IMG/VR virus record: IMGVR_UViG_2541047728_000014
Strand: one strand, 5' to 3'
DNA from: a virus
Taxonomy: Duplodnaviria; Heunggongvirae; Uroviricota; Caudoviricetes
DNA length: 53,998 nt
Shown: one piece after another, positions 1,216 to 17,631 of the stretch
How positions within the stretch are numbered: the stretch's first letter is position 1
How the letters are laid out: the number at the start of each line of letters is the position of its first letter
Position numbers and translations under genes: made by a program
Notes under the pieces: model-generated
The model's input: the letters and a program-made list of their open reading frames with translations, nothing else
Databases searched by the model: none
Told to the model about the DNA's origin: nothing

Positions 1216-1385
1216 TAGCGGTACATAACGCCACGCCCGGTCCCAAGTACGTCAACCGGGTCGGGGAACGGAGTTCCGTTCCGTTCCCATTTTTTACGCC
1301 ATAAGTAAAACGTTCCCCTGCTAATTCCCCCAAGCATCCGGCAGATGGCAGGGCGACTAAGAAGGATTGTCCCGGTTTTATCCAT
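1155..1385 (-). CDS. AlpA-like excisionase / phage transcriptional regulator
   Basis: 76-aa ORF; LLSRPAICRMLGGISRGTFYLWRKK...FPDPVDVLGTGRGVMYRYQDVMQFF matches the AlpA/Xis winged-helix pattern; 3' end overlaps int by about 60 nt (convergent). Confidence 0.7.
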   Translation of the reverse strand: MDKTGTILLSRPAICRMLGGISRGTFYLWRKKWERNGTPFPDPVDVLGTGRGVMYRYQDVMQFFDRIGLTSAKDNT

Positions 1386-2044
1386 TATTTATCCCCCGTG
1401 TATTCAACGTGTCCGATACATCCGTCAATAATAGCTTGCGCCATGTTGCGATAATCGCACGAAAATTCGTTGTCGCGGTTAAAGTTAATCTCTTTCGCCG
1501 CATCTTCACCGATAACCTTAGTAGCCAGTGCGAAAGCAATTTCAGCAAGTGCCTTTTCTTTCTGGTCAATGTGAATGCGATAAGAGTATTGTTTCCATGT
1601 AATTATCGTTTCCACATCTGATATTAATTTACTGTGAGCGATAGCCCAATTATCACCGAGATATAAAAACTTGACGACATCAAGAACCGTTCCGCTGGTC
1701 ATACCTACACAATCAAGCCACACATTAACAGGAGGTTTATCACCTACGGCCCATTCCGTTTTTTCTGGTTGCGTTTCGCAATCATGCCGCTCATCTTCGA
1801 TTAATTCATCAATGATCTCACTTTCTTTATTCATGCCGTCATCATCCTTATTAGATAAATTAGCGTATTTATCAAATTTCCAGCTTGCAGCCATAACCGA
1901 ATAAGTGCCGCCATCCGCGCGAACACCCAATAAATAGTATGATCCAAAATTATATTCTGTGCGGCATGTTGTTACCTCAAACGATGGGTAACACTCAGGG
2001 TTAGTGCGATGGCTAATCACGCCAATTGCTTTAAGTTTATTCAT
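1385..2044 (-). CDS. Hypothetical protein (219 aa), accessory gene next to int/xis
   Basis: Long ORF with GAGGA RBS before the ATG; no recognisable motif. Confidence 0.6.
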   Translation of the reverse strand: MNKLKAIGVISHRTNPECYPSFEVTTCRTEYNFGSYYLLGVRADGGTYSVMAASWKFDKYANLSNKDDDGMNKESEIIDELIEDERHDCETQPEKTEWAVGDKPPVNVWLDCVGMTSGTVLDVVKFLYLGDNWAIAHSKLISDVETIITWKQYSYRIHIDQKEKALAEIAFALATKVIGEDAAKEINFNRDNEFSCDYRNMAQAIIDGCIGHVEYTGDK

Positions 2045-2058
2045 TTGCTTATCCTCAA

Positions 2059-2235
2059 TTACGCCACAGTTACATTGTCAACTTTGATAAAATATTCAGG
2101 GTGATTTTCTATTTCGTGCTTAAAGTGCGCGTGACACAATCGCCAATCACGCACCTGGTTGTGAAAGTAATAAACGTATTCGCCATCAATCTTATACAAA
2201 ATGCCTGTAGGTTTAGCCATGTAATAACGAGCCAT
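2059..2235 (-). CDS. Small hypothetical protein (58 aa), translationally coupled to ninB
   Basis: Hand-called ORF MARYYMAKPTGILYKIDGEYVYYFHNQVRDWRLCHAHFKHEIENHPEYFIKVDNVTVA; ATG overlaps the ninB stop (TAATG); below the 60-aa cutoff of the ORF track. Confidence 0.4.
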   Translation of the reverse strand: MARYYMAKPTGILYKIDGEYVYYFHNQVRDWRLCHAHFKHEIENHPEYFIKVDNVTVA

Positions 2236-2666
2236 TATTGCCCCCAGCGTTTTATGAATTCCTCGTTTAATTTCGTATCACCCGACCATTGAACATCATG
2301 TTCAGCACCGAACGAGTAAATTAATTCGATTAGTTCACTGAATTCTGATTTACTCATTCGACTTGTAGATGTTCCCAATACAACGAAGCCGGATTTATCC
2401 AGATTAGGCACGACGCCATATTTTTTTAGCCCGGCGGTGAATACCGCTTTCCAGTCTTCCGACGACAGCTTCTTACCGTACCAATTAACCTGATCACTAA
2501 TGTCGGTTAGCAACGCCCATAGAAGGCTATTTTGGCTTAGCGAGCGGGTTTTCTCCTGGATGGTAATTATCAGCGGGCTTTTGCTATCAGGCTGGATCTC
2601 TCTTATCTGCCTGATAGCGTTTTCTTTTACGGCGTCGTTTACTATTTCAAATCTAATTTGCCTCAT
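2235..2666 (-). CDS. ninB: NinB-like recombination protein
   Basis: 143-aa ORF; IITIQEKTRSLSQNSLLWALLTDISDQVNWYGKKLSSEDWKAVFTAG...VVPNLDKSGFVVLGTSTSRMSKSEFSELIELIYSFGAEH closely resembles lambda NinB as recalled. Confidence 0.8.
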   Translation of the reverse strand: MRQIRFEIVNDAVKENAIRQIREIQPDSKSPLIITIQEKTRSLSQNSLLWALLTDISDQVNWYGKKLSSEDWKAVFTAGLKKYGVVPNLDKSGFVVLGTSTSRMSKSEFSELIELIYSFGAEHDVQWSGDTKLNEEFIKRWGQ

Positions 2667-2860
2667 AATACACCGTTACTGTTTTTCCACTGCGCCCGCG
2701 CATACATGATCGCCTGCAAAGAAATTAGACGTGAGCTTGTCATGAAAGCGCTTTTTAAGTATCTCATATCAACCACAACAGGTTTATCAGGATCGTCACC
2801 GTGCATGTATTCCGCAATAGTGCTAAAGTCTTCAATGGTTAAATCTAACTCCTTATTCAT
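2663..2860 (-). CDS. Hypothetical small protein (65 aa)
   Basis: ORF with start overlapping the upstream gene stop; no recognisable domain. Confidence 0.45.
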   Translation of the reverse strand: MNKELDLTIEDFSTIAEYMHGDDPDKPVVVDMRYLKSAFMTSSRLISLQAIMYARAQWKNSNGVL

Positions 2861-2869
2861 GATCGCCCC

Positions 2870-3076
2870 TCACACAATACGCATTGTGTTTCGTAATTCA
2901 CCGCGCAGCACCCGCAGTGCATCACGCATTGGTACAAAAACCCGGTTAAATTTTACGTGTTTATATTTCCGCATCAGTGGCGGTGTATACACCTTTGCGT
3001 CGTATACTTCCCACGGATAATAAACGCGCGTATCGTCAACAAACGTTTCAACTGAATAAAAGATTACCCGTATCAT
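2870..3076 (-). CDS. Hypothetical small protein (68 aa)
   Basis: ORF packed in the leftward early operon; no recognisable domain. Confidence 0.45.
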   Translation of the reverse strand: MIRVIFYSVETFVDDTRVYYPWEVYDAKVYTPPLMRKYKHVKFNRVFVPMRDALRVLRGELRNTMRIV

Positions 3077-3630
3077 AATTCCAACCCCGTTTCACCGTTA
3101 AGTTTTTCGACCTCAAATACTGGTTTATCCGGCAGCAGGCCGTTATTTTTCCGGTATTCATTCAGGCGGCTGTCAAAATCAAACGCGAGATCATTAGCGT
3201 GACCGAAGCGCCCAGGTTTAAACAGTGAGTAAAAATTAAGGCCGTGCTTATTGGTGTCTATGCAAAGCGTTTCATCCAGTACCATTAAACGCAGCGTGCG
3301 CGACAGGTAATTCCACGGAATACCAGTTTCCGCGCTAATGTCACGCATACGCTTTTTAACGCTGTAGTCACTAAATAACGATGCCACACGATCGCGACGT
3401 TGTGCATACAAATATTTAATTCGATAGCCAAGCAACCTGCGGCGAGGTCCGAAATATGTATATACACGCTCGACAATGCCAGTGTCGATTAAGTGTTTAA
3501 TTGTCTCAGGCAAACATCCAGCTTCGTCATATTCCGCTGATAATCCTGTTTTCTGGCGTAACTGGTGCATTGTGTCGATGCCATCAAGTTCAAGGATATT
3601 GATAATTTTTGCTTCAAGTTCAATGCTCAT
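3073..3630 (-). CDS. Hypothetical protein (about 185 aa)
   Basis: ORF 3073..3666; start placed at MSIELEAK (GAGG RBS upstream); no recognisable motif. Confidence 0.5.
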   Translation of the reverse strand: MSIELEAKIINILELDGIDTMHQLRQKTGLSAEYDEAGCLPETIKHLIDTGIVERVYTYFGPRRRLLGYRIKYLYAQRRDRVASLFSDYSVKKRMRDISAETGIPWNYLSRTLRLMVLDETLCIDTNKHGLNFYSLFKPGRFGHANDLAFDFDSRLNEYRKNNGLLPDKPVFEVEKLNGETGLEL

Positions 3631-3709
3631 TGTTTTTCGCCTCGTTTTAAGCGCGAAAACAGCCACCAGAAAGCGGTCAACTTTCCGGTAAGCCGTTTGC
3701 TCAAGTTAA

Positions 3710-5131
3710 TTAAAAAGATGCGTTGCTCTGGCTGTTTCGTGGGGAGAATCGACTTGCCGCCGGACGTTGTTGCATTGACTGAATGCAAGCGGACGCCGCG
3801 CGGGCCTGGTCGCATGGGATGATGTTGCCGTTATCGTCAAACCGCTGGTAAACAGTCCCCGTTTTCCCGTGACGGTTTTTTGAAACGATGATCTCCATAT
3901 ATTCGCGGGCAACCGATTGTTCGTTGTAGTAGCCGTCGCGGTAGACCATGATGATCCGGTCTGCGTCCTGTTCAAGATTACCGGAATCACGCAGATCAGA
4001 ATTGTTCGGGCGCTTGTTCGGTCGTTCCTCAACGCGGCGGGATAATTGCGCCAGTGCCGCCACTGGCACGCGCAACTCTTTCGCCATCATTTTCAATGAC
4101 CGCGACAATTGCCCTACGGCGAGATCATGACGTTCGGCCTTAGCCAGTTTCATTAACCCGATATAGTCAATCATCACCATCCCCAGGTTATGATGGTCCT
4201 GTTTCATCCGTTCGACGGTGGCGCGTATTTCCTCGACCGTTAACTGCGATGCGTCAACAATCCACACATCGAGATCGGCAAGGGCACTCATTCCCTGGGC
4301 GACGTGCGCCCAACCTTCGTCATCCAGTTTTACCGGATTACGTAGGCAATCCGTTGATAAGTTCCCAGCGCCAGCGATAGCACGTTCAGTCATCTGATCG
4401 AGCGACATTTCAAGCGTGAACAGCAAAACGCCGACCCGCTGACCTTCGCCTCCAGGGTATGGGCGTTCAGCCGCCGCGCGGGCAATTGCCAACGCCAACG
4501 CCGATTTACCAGACCCTGGGCGTCCGGCGATAAGCACCAGATCAGTAGCGTTAATGCCGCCTAACATTTCGTCGAGTGGGTCAATCCCTGTTTTGATGTT
4601 GTCAGAGTTCACGCCACACTCCATGCGTTTACTTAGCACTTCCGTGTATTCCTGGACAGCATCGCGCAACAGCACCGGGATAATCTGATCTTTTGTTACC
4701 TTTAATTTTGAATACCGGGAATCAAAATCTTTCATCGTCTCTTTGACGACCTCAAGTGTCCCAGTTTCCAGTTTGTAGCGCATATCGTCGATGAGTTCCA
4801 ACATCTGCCGCCGCTGGTGCTCTTCACGTAGTAGCTGTGCATATCCCTTCAGGTTGGCAGCAGAAGGGCACGATCGCGCCGTTTGCATTAGCGGTACAAA
4901 GTTTTCATTACCAATCTCATCACCAACCAATAACGCGTCGATAAGATTCCTGTTTCTGGCTTGCGCCCGGATAATTTCAAACGCCCGCTTATACAGCGGA
5001 ATAGTGAACACTTCAGGATCTAGCGTAGCGAGAACATCTTGCGCGTTAGGAGTGAGGCCGCCTAATAGCAGCCCGCCGATAACTGACGCTTCACGTTCCT
5101 GCAGTAGTGAGTTTATCTGCTCAGTTACCAT
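3710..5131 (-). CDS. DnaB-like replicative DNA helicase
   Basis: 473-aa ORF; Walker A GRPGSGKSALALAIA, DnaB-type C-terminal RecA-like domain (MIDYIGLM, LAQLSRRVEERPNKRP..DLRDSGNLEQDAD); GGAGG RBS. Confidence 0.85.
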   Translation of the reverse strand: MVTEQINSLLQEREASVIGGLLLGGLTPNAQDVLATLDPEVFTIPLYKRAFEIIRAQARNRNLIDALLVGDEIGNENFVPLMQTARSCPSAANLKGYAQLLREEHQRRQMLELIDDMRYKLETGTLEVVKETMKDFDSRYSKLKVTKDQIIPVLLRDAVQEYTEVLSKRMECGVNSDNIKTGIDPLDEMLGGINATDLVLIAGRPGSGKSALALAIARAAAERPYPGGEGQRVGVLLFTLEMSLDQMTERAIAGAGNLSTDCLRNPVKLDDEGWAHVAQGMSALADLDVWIVDASQLTVEEIRATVERMKQDHHNLGMVMIDYIGLMKLAKAERHDLAVGQLSRSLKMMAKELRVPVAALAQLSRRVEERPNKRPNNSDLRDSGNLEQDADRIIMVYRDGYYNEQSVAREYMEIIVSKNRHGKTGTVYQRFDDNGNIIPCDQARAASACIQSMQQRPAASRFSPRNSQSNASF

Positions 5132-5149
5132 TATGTCATTACCTCCGGT

Positions 5150-6268
5150 TTACAAAATGGAATATTCAGGGTAATAAACAAAGCGCCCGATCTCACCATA
5201 ATCCTGGCTGTAAATAATCACCGCTGCCATACGACGTGACCGCCAGCCGCCATTAGTTGAGTAAGCGTCTTTACCCGCTAACGTGCCGTGATACTCAACA
5301 ACGCCTAACGATGATTCAATTAGCCGTTGATGATGCCAGTGCCCGCAATGAGCGTAAACCGCCGCAGACTTGCCAAAGTCTTCTCGCCAGTCAGAGACGC
5401 AGGCAGACAACAAATTTTCAGGTTTTTTGATAGTATGACCGTGATGATATGCAAGGAATGTTTTGCCGTACTGTGTGTGGTGGACGATGGCAGGTGACAC
5501 ATCAACAGTAACGCGCGGTACATCTTCGTAAAAAGCCGCCAGCGCCGCACGTAGCCAGATCATTCCTGACTGGTCGTGATTACCTGATAACACCTGAATT
5601 TCTACATCCTTATGATTCAACAACATCTTACCTACAGCACGCCGGACCGACCGGATCGCCACGTAAACAAGTTTTGCGTAGCGTGAATCACAATCCAAAA
5701 CGTGATTACTTGATGGCGTCACTGGTAACAGTCCGTCAGTGTGGAGCACATCCCCTCCTAACAGCAAAAAAGCTTTTTCAGACATCGGTGCAGCGCCTAC
5801 CGCGTAGTCGAAGAAATCATTTAGCACGCGCTCAGCGATCCCGGTGTCGTAGCTCTCGCCGCATTCAGCTTTATGAGCAAGCGCCCCGATATGCAGATCA
5901 AATACCGGATAAAGGGCCAGGCTTTTTTGGAAATCAATTTCCGGCACTGGCACGGCCTCCGCGCGGGGTATTTCTTCCGTGAAGGCGTCACAAGCAGATT
6001 GCATTAGCCTTTCCATTTCATCGCGATCACGGGCTGTTTTAATCCAGCGCATAATCACATTGCCATCCTTATCGACGAGCAATGACTCACCATTGACGCC
6101 AAAACCCGGCGCGCGACGCGTGGATATTAAACCGCGTTTCGCCAACCGTGCGCCCAGGCGTTCGACGTTGCGTTTTGCCATTCCGTATTTTTCGGCGATC
6201 TGTTTATACGTTAGACCGTTGTTATGTTCAGTGATTAGCTGTTCATCACTAATCTTTCTTTGACACAT
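5150..6268 (-). CDS. Replication-associated protein: N-terminal HTH plus metallophosphoesterase-like domain
   Basis: ORF 5150..6319; start placed at MCQRKISDEQ (GGAGGATATAACATTATG); HTH-like LTYKQIAEKYGMAKRNVERL; phosphoesterase-like motifs GGDVLHTD, SGNHD, HCGHWHH. Confidence 0.6.
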   Translation of the reverse strand: MCQRKISDEQLITEHNNGLTYKQIAEKYGMAKRNVERLGARLAKRGLISTRRAPGFGVNGESLLVDKDGNVIMRWIKTARDRDEMERLMQSACDAFTEEIPRAEAVPVPEIDFQKSLALYPVFDLHIGALAHKAECGESYDTGIAERVLNDFFDYAVGAAPMSEKAFLLLGGDVLHTDGLLPVTPSSNHVLDCDSRYAKLVYVAIRSVRRAVGKMLLNHKDVEIQVLSGNHDQSGMIWLRAALAAFYEDVPRVTVDVSPAIVHHTQYGKTFLAYHHGHTIKKPENLLSACVSDWREDFGKSAAVYAHCGHWHHQRLIESSLGVVEYHGTLAGKDAYSTNGGWRSRRMAAVIIYSQDYGEIGRFVYYPEYSIL

Positions 6269-6302
6269 AATGTTATATCCTCCGGTTTTACATTTTGTAT
6301 AT

Positions 6303-7226
6303 TCATTGGCAGCAAACAATCTCTTTAAATGCTTCTTCTACCATGTCGAATACTTCCGGCCTGTAATAAAAAAACTCATTGCTACCATCAAATTTTACAG
6401 GAAAGTTAATTTTATAATTGCTAAAAGCCTTATGCATCGTGTTTTCTAGTTCATGTATATTTTCGGTTGGCCCTTCTAACGTTTTCACGATATGCAAATT
6501 AGGAATTCTAACGCCTGCTTTATGTGCGCTTTTTAATATCTCGTTTCTTCGTTTATTTTCCTGAACACTTACCCCAATTTTCATTTGTGTAGGCACTTCC
6601 AGATCATCAACCATGATGTAAAGTTTGCCATACTCATGACGAAGGAAACCGTATTTCGCGCATTTTGGACAGCCGTACCCGCTTTTAAGGTTGCAAGGCC
6701 TGGCAGACCACTCATGACTACAGATCTTGCAGCGGCACGGGACTTTATCTCTATGGTTCTTAATTTTTCCCAATACTTCAACATAAGTGTTAACTTTGGC
6801 TATATCTGTGATGTGTTCTTCGTGTGTTAATGTCCTTCCTTGTGCGCCTTTTAATATTCCGCATTTCGGGCAACCGCGCCCGCGTTTTAGGTTGCAAGGT
6901 GTAGCCGACCACTCATGACTACAGATATTGCAGCGGCATAATACTTTTGTTTTGTCATTAATAATTTCACCCAACACTTCAATATCAGGATTAACTTTCG
7001 CGATAGCGGCAATATGTTCTTCGTGCGATAACTTCATCTTCCCAGCGCATTTCGGGCAACCGCGCCCGTGTTTTAGGTTGCAAGGTGTAGCCGACCACTC
7101 ATGATCACAAACCTTGCAACGGCATAACACTTTTTTATGATTTCCGGTAATTTCTCCCAGCACTTCAACATCAGGATTAATTTTCGCAATAGCCGCAATT
7201 TGTTCTTCGTGTGTTAACTTGCGCAT
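6303..7226 (-). CDS. Protein with three tandem Cys4 zinc-ribbon repeats and a C-terminal T5orf172/GIY-YIG-like domain
   Basis: 307 aa; three ~50-aa repeats LTHEEHIAAIAKVNPD.EVLGEI....KV.CRC.ICSHEWSATPCNLK.G.GCPKC; C-terminal GKLYIMVDDLEVPTQMKIGVS ... GSNEFFYYRPEVF resembles the T5orf172 family (from memory). Confidence 0.6.
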   Translation of the reverse strand: MRKLTHEEQIAAIAKINPDVEVLGEITGNHKKVLCRCKVCDHEWSATPCNLKHGRGCPKCAGKMKLSHEEHIAAIAKVNPDIEVLGEIINDKTKVLCRCNICSHEWSATPCNLKRGRGCPKCGILKGAQGRTLTHEEHITDIAKVNTYVEVLGKIKNHRDKVPCRCKICSHEWSARPCNLKSGYGCPKCAKYGFLRHEYGKLYIMVDDLEVPTQMKIGVSVQENKRRNEILKSAHKAGVRIPNLHIVKTLEGPTENIHELENTMHKAFSNYKINFPVKFDGSNEFFYYRPEVFDMVEEAFKEIVCCQ

Positions 7227-7366
7227 CGTTCCAACTCCTTAAAACGCCTCAGACGCGCTACAATGCAAAAACCCACCGCGTAACCCATTTGCACAGGTTG
7301 CAGTGTCTTATTGCGTCAGAGGCGCTATCATGTGGCTAATTTTTGATTTACAGACTGGTAGGTATG

Positions 7367-7468
7367 TTATGGATTGACGCGAAGGAACAAACCGCCGAAC
7401 AAAACGACGTTTACAGCGATTGCCGCAGCGATGGCAAAAGCCACGGCGAAAACGTGTTTACTATCCAT
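7367..7468 (-). CDS. Candidate small hydrophobic peptide (33 aa)
   Basis: Hand-called ORF MDSKHVFAVAFAIAAAIAVNVVLFGGLFLRVNP with GAGAGGA RBS about 8 nt upstream; in the gap between the zinc-ribbon gene and the replisome organiser. Confidence 0.3.
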   Translation of the reverse strand: MDSKHVFAVAFAIAAAIAVNVVLFGGLFLRVNP

Positions 7469-7600
7469 TTTAAAATCCTCTCTGTAACGCTCTCTAACGA
7501 GCTAATCGCAAAAAGGCAAGCAAGTTAGCACCACATGCGATTTAGCTCGCTGGTGAGGTTGTTTTGTGGGTAATTTTGGATTTTTGCGGATCGTGGTTGG

Positions 7601-8647
7601 TCAAAGAGCGCCAGCGCGCGTATCACGTAGCGTTTTTGGTTTAAGCAGGAAATCAAGTGTCGCAGTGAAGCCATTGCCGAAGTAAAAATCTGAAGCCGTG
7701 TTTTTGAACGTTTCGAAGTAGGCGACAAAGCCGTTAATGCTTTTGTCTTTCAGGTAGTCAGCGAACGCATAGATCTTGCGTTCAAGATCCCGATCCAGTT
7801 CGGCAGGTGGTAACAGGCCGTCAAACGTGCTGTTAAATGCTTCCACCACGTCGGCAGCGTTTACAGTAGCTGATAGCTTGCGCCATTGCTCAGCGTCAGC
7901 CAGATACCCATCGAATTTAGTTACCCGGCAAATGTTGATAGGCTTAGGTGTTCCACCACGGCTGCGCCATTGCGTCAAAGCCCATTCGATTACTAATGTG
8001 ATCTCATCCTCCGTGTATGCCTTACGTGTTTTTGTTTCTGTCAGTAGTTCGATAAATGGCTTAGCATCACGACACTTGCATCCAGCTTTGTCGTTGTAGA
8101 AGGCCAAGCAACGCAATGCCGCTTCGTTTACGCCATCCTGATTGACCGTTTTTTGTCCATTTTCGCTAATACACGAAGTGTATATATCTTTTTCTCTTTC
8201 TTCTTCTACTTCTAATTCATGACCCTTTCCTGACCCGGTCATGACCCTATCATGACCTTTTGGTGTTGGATTGATTAACTTCTCTAATTTTAATTGCTCC
8301 TTCGCTGTGTTTATAGCAGCCCTATAAGCGCTCTTAGAAGTCATTGATTGGTCCAGCCTTTTTAATAACTTTAGGCAAGTTATGTGGCCTTGAGAACATT
8401 CGAACAAACCAATTTCGATGAAGTATTTCATCATTTCTTCTATACGTTTTTCAGTAGATCCGACGTTTCGCGCAATGATTCTCGCGTCATGTCGTAGGTC
8501 AAAATTCAGATTGTGCTGATCTACGTCATAAGTTATTAGTTCGAGGCAATACCAATAAAGCCCGTACCCTTCCAGGCCATAATCTAACAAAACGTTTTGA
8601 AGTTTTTCATCGCGGTTCGCATCGCTGTCATGCTTAAACCACTTCAT
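7601..8647 (-). CDS. Phage replisome organiser / replication initiation protein (Lin1244/DUF4373-like N-terminus)
   Basis: 348 aa; N-terminal MKWFKHDSDANRDEKLQNVLLDYGLEGYGLYWYCLELI matches the conserved N-terminal domain of phage replication initiators; CCGGAGG RBS. Confidence 0.7.
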   Translation of the reverse strand: MKWFKHDSDANRDEKLQNVLLDYGLEGYGLYWYCLELITYDVDQHNLNFDLRHDARIIARNVGSTEKRIEEMMKYFIEIGLFECSQGHITCLKLLKRLDQSMTSKSAYRAAINTAKEQLKLEKLINPTPKGHDRVMTGSGKGHELEVEEEREKDIYTSCISENGQKTVNQDGVNEAALRCLAFYNDKAGCKCRDAKPFIELLTETKTRKAYTEDEITLVIEWALTQWRSRGGTPKPINICRVTKFDGYLADAEQWRKLSATVNAADVVEAFNSTFDGLLPPAELDRDLERKIYAFADYLKDKSINGFVAYFETFKNTASDFYFGNGFTATLDFLLKPKTLRDTRAGAL

Positions 8648-15348: not shown

Positions 15349-15888
15349 ATGAAAAATGATTACGGCGGCAGCCATACGCCGAAAGAAATAAAAGACTTAT
15401 GGCAAACGCCAAAACCCGTTTTTAGAGGAATGGATCGGGAATTCGAGTTCGTCGCGGATGTGGCGGCAAACAAGGAAAACGCATTAATCCCGCGATATAT
15501 AACCGAAGAAATGGACACGCTCCATTATCCGTGGGGAGCGGTGGCGATGCCTGGTGAGTATGTCTGGATGAATCCGCCATATTCTAATCCGGGACCATTC
15601 GTTGATAAGGCGGCGCTTGAACATCAACGAAATCACATTGGCTGTGTAATGCTATTGCCCGCTGACATTTCTGTTAGCTGGTTTATGAACGGCGTGGAGA
15701 CGGCAAACGAATGCCGATTAATCACGCGCGGGCGGCTGGCGTTTATCAATGCTGCAACAGGGAAACCAGTAAGCGGGAACAATAAGGGGAGCTTGTTCTT
15801 GATCTGGCATCCACGATGCAGACATGAATGTATTTTCACGCAGATAACACGTAAAGAGCTATACGCGAGAGGCGCAAATAATGACTAA
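15349..15888 (+). CDS. Phage-type DNA N6-adenine methyltransferase (Dam family)
   Basis: 179 aa; WQTP motif near the N-terminus and catalytic NPPYS; size and layout typical of the small phage Dam methylases. Confidence 0.75.
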   Translation: MKNDYGGSHTPKEIKDLWQTPKPVFRGMDREFEFVADVAANKENALIPRYITEEMDTLHYPWGAVAMPGEYVWMNPPYSNPGPFVDKAALEHQRNHIGCVMLLPADISVSWFMNGVETANECRLITRGRLAFINAATGKPVSGNNKGSLFLIWHPRCRHECIFTQITRKELYARGANND

Positions 15889-16288
15889 GGCAGCAGATTT
15901 ATTAAGACTTGCAGCAGAAACCATAGAGCAAAGAGGTAAGCAAAACGGCTACGACAAAAAAGAGGAAAAATCAGCGCCAAAAATAGCCACTATTTACAAC
16001 GCTAAGAAGGGGGCAGATTTAACCACGCTTGATGTATGGGATCTGCTAATTTGTCTCAAGGAGGCGCGTTTAGAGGCTATTTTGAGCAATAACAGCGATC
16101 CGACAGACACACTAATTGATTTAATTAGCTATAACGCGCTAAAAGCTGAGCAAATATTAACGGAGCGGGAGGAAGAGCAAAAGAAAAAACAGGGCGTTTT
16201 TGATCTCCCTATCGGTGGATTGAAGAAAACTTTTGCTGACCTTGCCGGACCAGAACCATCTATTGTACCGGGGCAATCCCACCTGTGA
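15881..16288 (+). CDS. Conserved phage protein of unknown function (135 aa)
   Basis: ORF; AADLLRLAAETIEQRGKQNGYD ... LDVWDLLICLKEARL pattern looks like a recurring phage family; function unknown. Confidence 0.5.
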   Translation: MTKAADLLRLAAETIEQRGKQNGYDKKEEKSAPKIATIYNAKKGADLTTLDVWDLLICLKEARLEAILSNNSDPTDTLIDLISYNALKAEQILTEREEEQKKKQGVFDLPIGGLKKTFADLAGPEPSIVPGQSHL

Positions 16289-16372
16289 TGTTTAACGGTG
16301 GTGAGATTACTAATCGGCTTGATGTGAAGTTTGACAACGAATCGCTATTACGCGCGGCGGGGTATCATAAAA

Positions 16373-16876
16373 ATGGAAAGGGTGACAATTGACAGGTTAT
16401 TAGCCTGCGTTTATGTCGCCGTTTTTGTGATCATCAATCTTATTGTTAATCATTGCGGCCCGTGGGTAATTCCGATCACCACGGTAGCCGCCGTGTGTGT
16501 CAATATGATGATCCGTGACCTCCTGTTATATGACGGCGGCCTGAAATGGTCGGCTACAACATGCGCCGCCGCTGGCGCAATCACGGTGCTGATAAATTAC
16601 GACGCCGGAATGGTGGCGATCGCGTCATTCGTTGCGGTTGTTTCCGGTGCACTTATTTCTGGCGGCGTTTACCGGGTTTTGCCTGGTGGCTTTGATTCTA
16701 AACGTTGGCCTGCAAATATAGCGTCCGCCATTGGTGATGCGTTAATTTTTCCTACGCTATCGTTTATGGCGTTTATGCCGGAAATATCAGCTATGCAATT
16801 CATCTCAAAAATGGCAGCGGTAACGGTGATCACCATCATTATGCGCCGCTATTTCACGTTTGAGGGTAGAAAATGA
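16373..16876 (+). CDS. Polytopic membrane protein, possibly YhhQ/DUF165-like queuosine-precursor transporter
   Basis: ORF 16331..16876; start placed at MERVTIDR; several hydrophobic helices; weak resemblance to YhhQ motifs (MIRDLLLYDGG, IGDALIFPTLSFMAF); family assignment unverified. Confidence 0.35.
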   Translation: MERVTIDRLLACVYVAVFVIINLIVNHCGPWVIPITTVAAVCVNMMIRDLLLYDGGLKWSATTCAAAGAITVLINYDAGMVAIASFVAVVSGALISGGVYRVLPGGFDSKRWPANIASAIGDALIFPTLSFMAFMPEISAMQFISKMAAVTVITIIMRRYFTFEGRK

Positions 16877-17631
16877 GCAGGGCTAAACATTGGTTAAATA
16901 ATTGGCTTAGAAGTTGGGTGGTGTGGTCGCTGTACGACGGCAGCGGGTACGCCGTTAAAGATTGGGCGGAAGCTGGATATAAGTGCTATTGCTTCAACTA
17001 TGACGGCGCAAATCACGGAGATTATGAAGGCGTTAAAATCATTCATCCAAATATTGAATACGTTAACGTCTGGATTGATAGCCATTTCCTGGTAATGTTC
17101 TCCCCTGAATTGTCTGTTTATCCAGAGCCTGACATTATCCTGGGCTTTCCTCCATGCGACGATCTCGCTGTGTCAGGCGCTCGCTGGTTCGTTGATAAAT
17201 ACAGGAAAGATCCTTGTTTTCAGAATAGGGCGGCAAGAAACGCAATGTTGGTTGAATCTCTGGCTAACATGTATAACGTGCCGTGGATGGTGGAGAATCC
17301 TGTTGGTGTGCTGTCAACGCTATGGCGTAAACCGGATTTTATCTTCAATCCTTGCGCTTACGGTGGCTACCTGCCGGAAGATGACAAGCATCCTGCTTTC
17401 CCTGATGTTTACCCACCGCGCGACGCGTACACGAAGAAAACTTGCATATGGTGCGGCAACGGATTCAGGCAGCCGCTTTTTAGACCTGTAGATCTTAACT
17501 CTGGTGATAACCCTGGGTGGGCGAAAACCGGAGGCAGGACGAAACGAACAAAGATGATCCGCTCACTAACACCGCGTGGCTTTGCCCGTGCTGTATTCCT
17601 GGCTAACCATGACCGCGTTTTATCGGACTGA
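16873..17631 (+). CDS. Truncated C5-cytosine-methyltransferase-like protein (PCD instead of PCQ, no obvious target-recognition domain)
   Basis: 252 aa; motif I-like LYDGSGY, motif IV-like ILGFPPCDDLAVSGARWF, motif VI-like MVENPVG with canonical spacing; CIWCGNG Cys pair near the C-terminus; too short for a canonical C5 MTase. Confidence 0.5.
   Translation: MSRAKHWLNNWLRSWVVWSLYDGSGYAVKDWAEAGYKCYCFNYDGANHGDYEGVKIIHPNIEYVNVWIDSHFLVMFSPELSVYPEPDIILGFPPCDDLAVSGARWFVDKYRKDPCFQNRAARNAMLVESLANMYNVPWMVENPVGVLSTLWRKPDFIFNPCAYGGYLPEDDKHPAFPDVYPPRDAYTKKTCIWCGNGFRQPLFRPVDLNSGDNPGWAKTGGRTKRTKMIRSLTPRGFARAVFLANHDRVLSD

Follow-up and report, generated by a model that had tools for sequence, protein, structure and literature searches.

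A phage block encoding a Dam methylase, a DUF6378 protein, a YhhQ-like membrane protein and a compact Dcm-like cytosine methyltransferase

The four-gene block

The window analyzed here is a 53,998-nucleotide stretch of DNA from a virus of the Caudoviricetes (IMG/VR record IMGVR_UViG_2541047728_000014). It represents a temperate coliphage of the mEp021 group (mEpimmI), and the subject of this report is a block of four consecutive open reading frames (ORFs) on its plus strand, which encode a Dam-type adenine methylase, a DUF6378 protein, a membrane protein of the VUT/YhhQ family and a Dcm-like cytosine methyltransferase. All four ORFs lie where a first-pass annotation, made from the sequence alone, had placed them (Table 1), and the DNA-modification island suggested there is present to the extent that the block holds both an adenine-N6 and a cytosine-C5 methylase. 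The reading preferred here, with a probability of roughly 0.7, is that of four clustered but independently acting genes: Dam, DUF6378, a YhhQ/VUT importer and a minimal, full-length Dcm-like methylase.

The block shares 88-90% nucleotide identity with mEp044, mEp021 and MagusPhagus, is matched at 100% identity by a chromosomal prophage of E. coli M1/5, and was found in 35 of 5,426 complete E. coli genomes. The block is accessory and belongs to the early region of this mEp021-type phage, which is transcribed rightward; homologues of NinG, RusA and the antiterminator Q are encoded just downstream of it. The equivalent mEp021 products, gp30-gp33, are annotated as N6-adenine methyltransferase, hypothetical protein, membrane protein and putative cytosine methyltransferase. 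A terminator is annotated just downstream of the cytosine methyltransferase gene in the mEp021 record, although a simple terminator scan of the window gave none after the methylase gene. A second nut site, nutR2, was described downstream of the putative cytosine methyltransferase gene, there numbered gp32, in the mEpimmI phages (PMC11893012). No tRNA genes were found in the window. The ORFs of the block are regarded as real genes and not chance ORFs because they have thousands of homologues and low ratios of nonsynonymous to synonymous substitution rates (dN/dS). The median dN/dS is 0.077 for the methylase, which denotes purifying selection, and 0.044 for the transporter, which denotes very strong purifying selection.

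Table 1. Features of the four-gene block, with positions counted from the first letter of the window
Feature	Position	Strand	Remarks
Phage Dam-type DNA N6-adenine methyltransferase, 179 aa	15349..15888	+	PF05869, TIGR01712, phrog_111
DUF6378 protein, 135 aa; overlaps Dam stop by 8 nt	15881..16288	+	PF19905, phrog_9871/474
Short VUT/YhhQ-family membrane protein, 167 aa, six predicted helices; putative 7-deazapurine (preQ0/preQ1) importer	16373..16876	+	phrog_4899, profile search
Compact Dcm-like DNA cytosine-C5 methyltransferase, 252 aa; ATG overlaps transporter stop (ATGA)	16873..17631	+	
Motif I, AdoMet-binding loop, LYDGSGY, residues 20-26	16930..16950	+	Aligns with DNMT3B motif I
Motif IV with catalytic Cys95, GFPPCDDLAVSG, residues 91-102	17143..17178	+	Aligns with PCNDLS of DNMT3B
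Motif VI, ENPVG, residues 141-145	17293..17307	+	E141 corresponds to E128 of K42 Dcm

The Dcm-like cytosine methyltransferase

The 252-residue protein matches phrog_757 (‘DNA methyltransferase’) over residues 3-249 with an E-value of 1.1e-86. The family is large. Homologues fill more than 7,555 clusters of the 90% database, 1,196 representative clusters are reached at E up to 1e-3, and members occur in 1,520 of 50,697 phage records, including those of Drexlerviridae, rV5-like phages, Dhillonvirus and Klebsiella siphoviruses. The 80 relatives that were aligned are 53-94% identical to the protein. Because family members are mostly 210-260 residues long (150 best representative-cluster hits), the protein is considered full-length, and its earlier description as truncated does not hold.

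As had been noted before, motifs I, IV and VI of the C5-methyltransferases (LYDGSGY, GFPPCDDLAVSG and ENPVG) are present in the canonical order. G23, S24, P94, C95, E141, N142, P143 and K188 are invariant in the 80 relatives, and G25 is conserved in at least 90% of them. The Asp that follows the catalytic Cys had been taken as an anomaly, standing in place of a conserved Gln. The residue at this position is Thr in at least 90% of the 80 relatives (family consensus FPPCTD) and Asn in DNMT3B, which reads PCNDLS; Asp is confined to the mEp group and fixed there, 37 of 37 alleles reading FPPCD[D/N/H]LA. Since the residue varies between Thr, Asp and, in DNMT3B, Asn, the PCQ form of the motif is not required.

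Scans of the protein against Pfam and NCBIfam gave no match at E up to 0.1, and a single-sequence search of the PDB was likewise empty. PF00145 was matched weakly by 12 of 31 relatives at E up to 1 (best E 1.3e-6). A profile of the family found only DNMT3B in the PDB, with motifs I and IV in register, and the best fold matches of the predicted structure are DNMT3A/B, M.HhaI and M.HaeIII, in agreement with the C5-methyltransferase fold proposed earlier. The protein shares with the catalytic domain of DNMT3A and DNMT3B a motif IV of the form PC-x-DL, the lack of Gln after the Cys and a very small target-recognition region, but the identity is only 13-18%, the TM-score is only 0.4-0.5, and the phage protein has no regulatory domains. 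With E. coli Dcm, M.HhaI and M.HaeIII (PF00145) it shares the fold and the order of motifs I, IV and VI. Compared with E. coli Dcm and the type II enzymes it is about 100-220 residues shorter, reads PPC-D and ENP for PCQ and ENV, has no significant PF00145 match, and lacks the large target-recognition domain between motifs VIII and IX. In its place, only some 30 residues, most of them in loops (196-225, predicted local distance difference test score (pLDDT) 68-84), separate the strand at 190-195 from the C-terminal helices. The small size of this region is a family-wide feature, so that the earlier remark that the protein is too short for a target-recognition domain is correct as regards a large one and extends to its relatives.

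An experimental precedent is available from the Drexlerviridae. Mutants of phage K42 that escape retron Ec86 all disrupt a 711-bp gene for a ‘Dcm-like C5 cytosine methyltransferase’, expression of which raises 5-methylcytosine (5mC) in the multicopy single-stranded DNA (msDNA) of the retron, as determined by liquid chromatography-mass spectrometry, and triggers Ec86; the C82A/E128A/K175A/K176A mutant is inactive (bioRxiv 10.1101/2023.08.16.553469). Gene product 49 of phage FritzSarasin (BASEL Bas04), also encoded by a 711-bp gene, has 236 residues and is 60% identical to the 252-residue protein, and its C82, E128, K175 and K176 correspond to C95, E141, K188 and K189 here. As gene length (711 bp), phage taxon and the four residue positions of K42 Dcm coincide with those of the FritzSarasin protein, we infer that K42 Dcm belongs to the same family (phrog_757); the KarlJaspers/K42 dcm gene was not among the 60 listed of the 105 records matching the FritzSarasin gene. 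The statement that the activity of the enzyme is unknown would accordingly need revision at the level of the family, since K42 Dcm, a probable member, makes 5mC (10.1101/2023.08.16.553469). The Drexlerviridae proteins (K42/KarlJaspers, FritzSarasin gp49) agree with the 252-residue protein in family, length class, invariant motifs, and catalytic and binding residues. The latter differs from the FritzSarasin protein by a 13-residue N-terminal extension and by Asp instead of Thr after the catalytic Cys, and the setting differs as well: a temperate phage with Dam, DUF6378 and VUT genes alongside, as against the early genes of a virulent siphovirus.

The CCWGG specificity given in the retron study was assumed by analogy with host Dcm, which does not trigger the retron (10.1101/2023.08.16.553469). 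That host Dcm fails to trigger Ec86 although both enzymes are said to target CCWGG, that the family's only demonstrated substrate is retron msDNA, a hairpin, and that the target-recognition region is very small would all fit a physiological substrate of single-stranded or hairpin DNA, or of RNA as in the case of Dnmt2, rather than phage double-stranded DNA. Such a substrate is nevertheless judged unlikely, as the best fold matches (DNMT3A/B, M.HhaI, M.HaeIII) are DNA enzymes, the gene lies beside Dam in a DNA-modification island, and the family is widespread in virulent phages, for which anti-restriction is an obvious benefit. Counted over the whole window, both CCWGG (110 observed, 59 expected) and GATC (259, against 182 expected) clearly exceed what dinucleotide-preserving shuffles predict and are not avoided; these counts are uninformative as to the specificity of the methylases.

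The YhhQ-like membrane protein

The membrane protein matches phrog_4899 (E 7e-47) and has few close relatives (12 clusters). A profile built from it and six of these relatives reaches 13 short proteins that bear PF02592 (E 9e-21 to 3.5e-6). Pfam and NCBIfam scans at E up to 0.1 gave no match, and the direct match to Pfam Vut_1 is below threshold (E 0.18, 12.6 bits against a cutoff of 27.2); it spans residues 13-157 of the protein and positions 6-149 of the 152 in the profile. Vut_1 is matched by 21 of 24 aligned relatives, and all 13 invariant columns of this 24-member alignment of short VUT proteins are retained, the conserved residues being N22, G29, R48-D49, A82/A84/S85, N115, D122, P127, F131, F143 and K146. 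The profile match to PF02592 proteins, the model-spanning Vut_1 match and the retained columns together support the assignment to the YhhQ-type transporters, which had been offered as a weak one. The AlphaFold2 model shows six long helices at a mean pLDDT of 67, and its top BFVD structure match, a ‘putative vitamin uptake transporter’, has a probability of 0.97 but an E-value of 0.22 and is suggestive only.

The gene most likely starts at ATG 16373 and encodes 167 residues. Homologues of 162-173 residues begin at the equivalent of this codon, so that the longest ORF, which runs from TTG 16331 and has 181 residues, probably over-extends the protein by 14 codons. E. coli YhhQ (COG1738, PF02592), of about 220 residues, belongs to the same family by profile search, whereas the phage protein is shorter and falls in a distinct subclade. 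Its short length, the sub-threshold Pfam match and the low-confidence model might be taken to mean that the protein is a phage ‘moron’, serving superinfection exclusion or lysis timing and merely descended from the VUT fold. This is improbable in view of the 13 retained invariant residues and the low dN/dS, and relatives that are equally short are paired with DpdA, which would fit the putative transport role.

The genomic neighbourhood of the transporter was compared in IMG/VR, where 470 relatives were detected and the best 80 loci were analyzed with local profiles, namely 48 mEp-type and 32 non-mEp loci. A DpdA-like gene (phrog_887) is directly adjacent to the short VUT gene in 30 of the 32 non-mEp loci; the two exceptions are at the ends of their contigs. 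DpdA is a TGT-like transglycosylase, which would draw on an imported 7-deazaguanine precursor to modify DNA. The short phage VUT gene (about 160 residues, phrog_4899) and the DpdA-like gene occur in either order and often overlap (L062-L093; L009, L011, L012, L013), and the same pairing is seen in the isolates and metagenomic contigs PEAT2, Opt-719, LHE71 and L009/L010. In L009 the 249-residue product of the gene following the VUT gene was tried as a Dcm-like relative and rejected (BLASTP E 0.81); it is DpdA-like (phrog_887, E 5e-69). A phage yhhQ gene within a dpdA cluster has been documented for CAjan (PMC7544227). Such genes in dpdA clusters were also reported by Hutinet et al. in 2019, who found no correlation of phage YhhQ with any particular phage group and proposed that phages with preQ0 genes but without DpdA boost queuosine in tRNA (PMC6884629).

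At the mEp-type loci the gene directly downstream of the transporter is Dcm-like and not DpdA, and none of the 48 carries DpdA at this site. A profile of four phage DpdA proteins, searched with filters off against all six-frame ORFs of the window, gave a best E-value of 0.34, and none of the seven ORFs of the window that were compared with PHROGs matched phrog_887. A Pfam scan of 29 window ORFs, which covered neither the small ORFs nor the structural module, likewise gave no genes for preQ0 synthesis. As the phage is without DpdA, imported precursor cannot feed DNA modification by a known route. The protein thus shares PHROG 4899 with the DpdA-linked YhhQ proteins of phages such as CAjan and PEAT2 but has a cytosine methylase for a neighbour, and the mEp-type and DpdA-linked clades diverge at conserved positions, the former having, for example, Asn for the Asp of the ‘GLD’ motif. 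The components are all of known families; what is unusual is a strongly conserved YhhQ-like gene that occurs without DpdA and is translationally overlapped with a cytosine methylase gene. A third transporter lineage, 47% identical, is present in L005 (5001-6375) and L060 (3965-6225) and has neither DpdA nor the Dcm-like gene; the transporter gene is followed there by two paralogous phrog_2510 genes of unknown function and, in L060, by a phrog_67 DNA methyltransferase gene.

These neighbourhoods allow the locus to be seen as the relic of a 7-deazaguanine cassette, in which DpdA of an ancestral transporter-DpdA pair was replaced by the Dcm-like gene and the transporter was repurposed, either for host queuosine-tRNA or for scavenging preQ0 from competing phages. 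The near-constant pairing at non-mEp loci, its recurrence in other phages with the CAjan precedent (PMC7544227), the queuosine-tRNA proposal for DpdA-less phages (PMC6884629), and the exchange of the Dcm-like gene for an HNH ORF at the exact site in L028 and L039 speak for such a history. On the other side, no mEp-type relative with DpdA at the site occurs among the 48 loci, codon usage gives no hint of queuosine dependence, and the nearest transporter clades (L004/L006 and L005/L060) also have no DpdA, for which reason any replacement must be old. The relic origin is considered possible, though somewhat less likely than not.

Gene loss, neighbouring genes and proposed roles

Natural variants bear on whether the transporter and the methylase act together. 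Among the 48 mEp-type IMG/VR loci, the Dcm-like gene is cleanly deleted in L052, internally deleted in L048, L049 and L053, frameshifted in L050 and disrupted in L025, with the transporter intact in all of them. The transporter is also intact in L028 and L039, where an ORF of 175 residues (4501-5028 in L028) with the HNH-like motif VDHINHIKTDN has taken the place of the Dcm-like gene; this ORF replaces the equivalent of window 16877-17571, and only the last 25 or so methylase codons remain. Judged by its motif, it may encode a homing endonuclease. The reverse case is L059, with a truncated transporter and an intact Dcm-like gene. Across phage records the Dcm-like gene occurs in 1,520 and the transporter in 21. 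Because each gene is lost independently of the other, coupling of transporter and methylase is unlikely, and the block is seen as an island of independent accessory genes rather than as a pathway. With each gene lost without the other in natural variants, and with neither DpdA nor, in the ORFs scanned, preQ0-synthesis genes, the suggestion that the cluster specifies a non-canonical modification is not supported. A different kind of event was observed in P0127 (171 residues, on a 55.8-kb Logan/ENA contig), in which the first two-thirds of the transporter have been joined to the last third of the methylase by a natural in-frame deletion that destroyed both genes.

Of the two genes that precede the transporter, the first, the phage Dam, had been recognized correctly: the protein matches both curated models at full length and above threshold, with PF05869 covered over the full profile (E 2.2e-52, 177.6 bits against a cutoff of 28.1) and TIGR01712 phage_N6A_met scoring 143.4 bits against a cutoff of 97.05, and phrog_111 is matched at E 8e-65. 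It is an ordinary member of the Dam proteins of temperate enterobacterial phages, with nothing notable to set it apart, and sits, as described, upstream of ninG, rusA and Q. The DUF6378 protein barely clears the threshold of PF19905 (E 3.4e-7, 30.9 bits against a cutoff of 27.1), has no sequence relative in the PDB, and no functional literature on it was found. Its gene is kept at the same position in the diverged relatives L004 and L006. The length of the protein varies among relatives, from 98-99 residues (L004 4708-5004, L006 4709-5008) to 135 in the window and 165 in mEp021 gp31; the core comprises the first 95 or so residues, and all differences fall in the C-terminal tail, which is poorly conserved. 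DUF6378 was considered as a regular partner of the transporter-DpdA cassette and rejected, as it occurs nearby in one of the 32 non-mEp loci (L087).

Elsewhere in the window, the minus strand at 1385-8647 encodes NinB (2235-2666), a DnaB-like helicase (3710-5131) and an exonuclease, opposite in direction to the block from Dam to Q. This layout is unlike that of lambda, and the phage group is described as non-lambdoid. A 307-residue protein at 6303-7226 on the same strand combines three DUF4379 treble-clef zinc fingers with CapR homology domains and a T5orf172/MUG113 (GIY-YIG-like) domain; it is flanked by a phrog_704 ‘DNA repair exonuclease’ (5150-6319) and a Lin1244_N protein (7601-8647).

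The reading of four independently acting genes is built on the observed folds, families, motif conservation, gene order, purifying selection and independent loss; the substrates, sequence specificity and physiological roles that follow are proposed. Dam would methylate adenine in phage and host DNA. In the Dcm-like enzyme, motif I (DGSG) would bind S-adenosylmethionine (AdoMet). The PPC motif would supply Cys95 for attack on C6 of a flipped-out cytosine and the ENP motif Glu141 for protonation of N3, after which the methyl group would be moved to C5, giving ordinary 5-methylcytosine. Contacts to DNA would be made by Lys188/Lys189 and a short basic loop (residues 196-230 or so) in place of the large target-recognition domain, as in DNMT3. 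Together, 5mC and Dam methylation may protect replicating phage DNA from methylation-sensitive restriction, at the cost that defences such as retron Ec86 may detect 5mC; speculatively, this cost of detection might help to explain the frequent natural loss of the Dcm-like gene. The 167-residue protein most likely acts as an inner-membrane transporter that imports a queuosine precursor (preQ0/preQ1), which would top up host queuosine-tRNA, the leading idea, or serve another DpdA-independent role.

Several observations weigh against this proposal. The codons read by queuosine-tRNA (Asn, Asp, His and Tyr) show an unremarkable NAU fraction of 0.46-0.56 and lend no support to a role in tRNA modification. 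The very strong purifying selection on a transporter that has no known partner is unexplained, and E. coli already carries a YhhQ of its own, so that a phage copy offers no obvious advantage. For the methylase, the 252-residue protein itself has no match to PF00145 (E up to 1) or NCBIfam, K42 Dcm is assigned to the family by the length of its gene, the family of its phage and the agreement of four residue numbers, and CCWGG specificity for the Dcm-like family is an unproven assumption taken from host Dcm. Finally, two features of the gene arrangement fit coupled expression: the ATGA overlap of the transporter and methylase genes, and the four-gene order, which is kept in relatives whose transporters are only 50-54% identical.

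The last two features would also suit a joint pathway for a non-canonical modification, in which the transporter imports a precursor or cofactor that the PCD-variant C5 enzyme attaches to cytosine, or uses instead of AdoMet, to give a hypermodified base. The fixation of Asp after the Cys in all mEp-group alleles, as against Thr elsewhere, and the divergence of the mEp-type transporters from the DpdA-linked clade could be cited in its favour. It is nevertheless regarded as far-fetched: natural variants keep either gene when the other is lost, the methylase occurs in more than 1,500 phages that have no transporter, a probable member of the wider family gives ordinary 5mC, and the known substrates of YhhQ-type transporters are 7-deazapurines, which no cytosine-C5 enzyme is known to use. 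A broader version, also a long shot, would give the transporter a DpdA-independent role that is either tied to the PCD-variant enzyme, through import of a cofactor or adduct for a cytosine mark other than 5mC, or consists in a new manipulation of the host queuosine and 7-deazapurine pool.

For annotation, three labels change: the 252-residue protein is to be recorded as a complete, minimal Dcm-like methylase and not as a truncated or enigmatic enzyme, the product listed in mEp021-group phages as a ‘hypothetical membrane protein’ is to be named a YhhQ/VUT homologue, and its start is to be placed, with probability, at 16373. The Dcm-like family, nearly devoid of a target-recognition domain, occurs in about 3% of sequenced phages. 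Both the specificity of the methylase and the role of the transporter are easy to address in the mEp phages, which can be propagated on E. coli K-12 and manipulated genetically. One clade of temperate coliphages that keeps a short VUT protein under strong selection without DpdA offers a testable case for DpdA-independent import of queuosine precursors.

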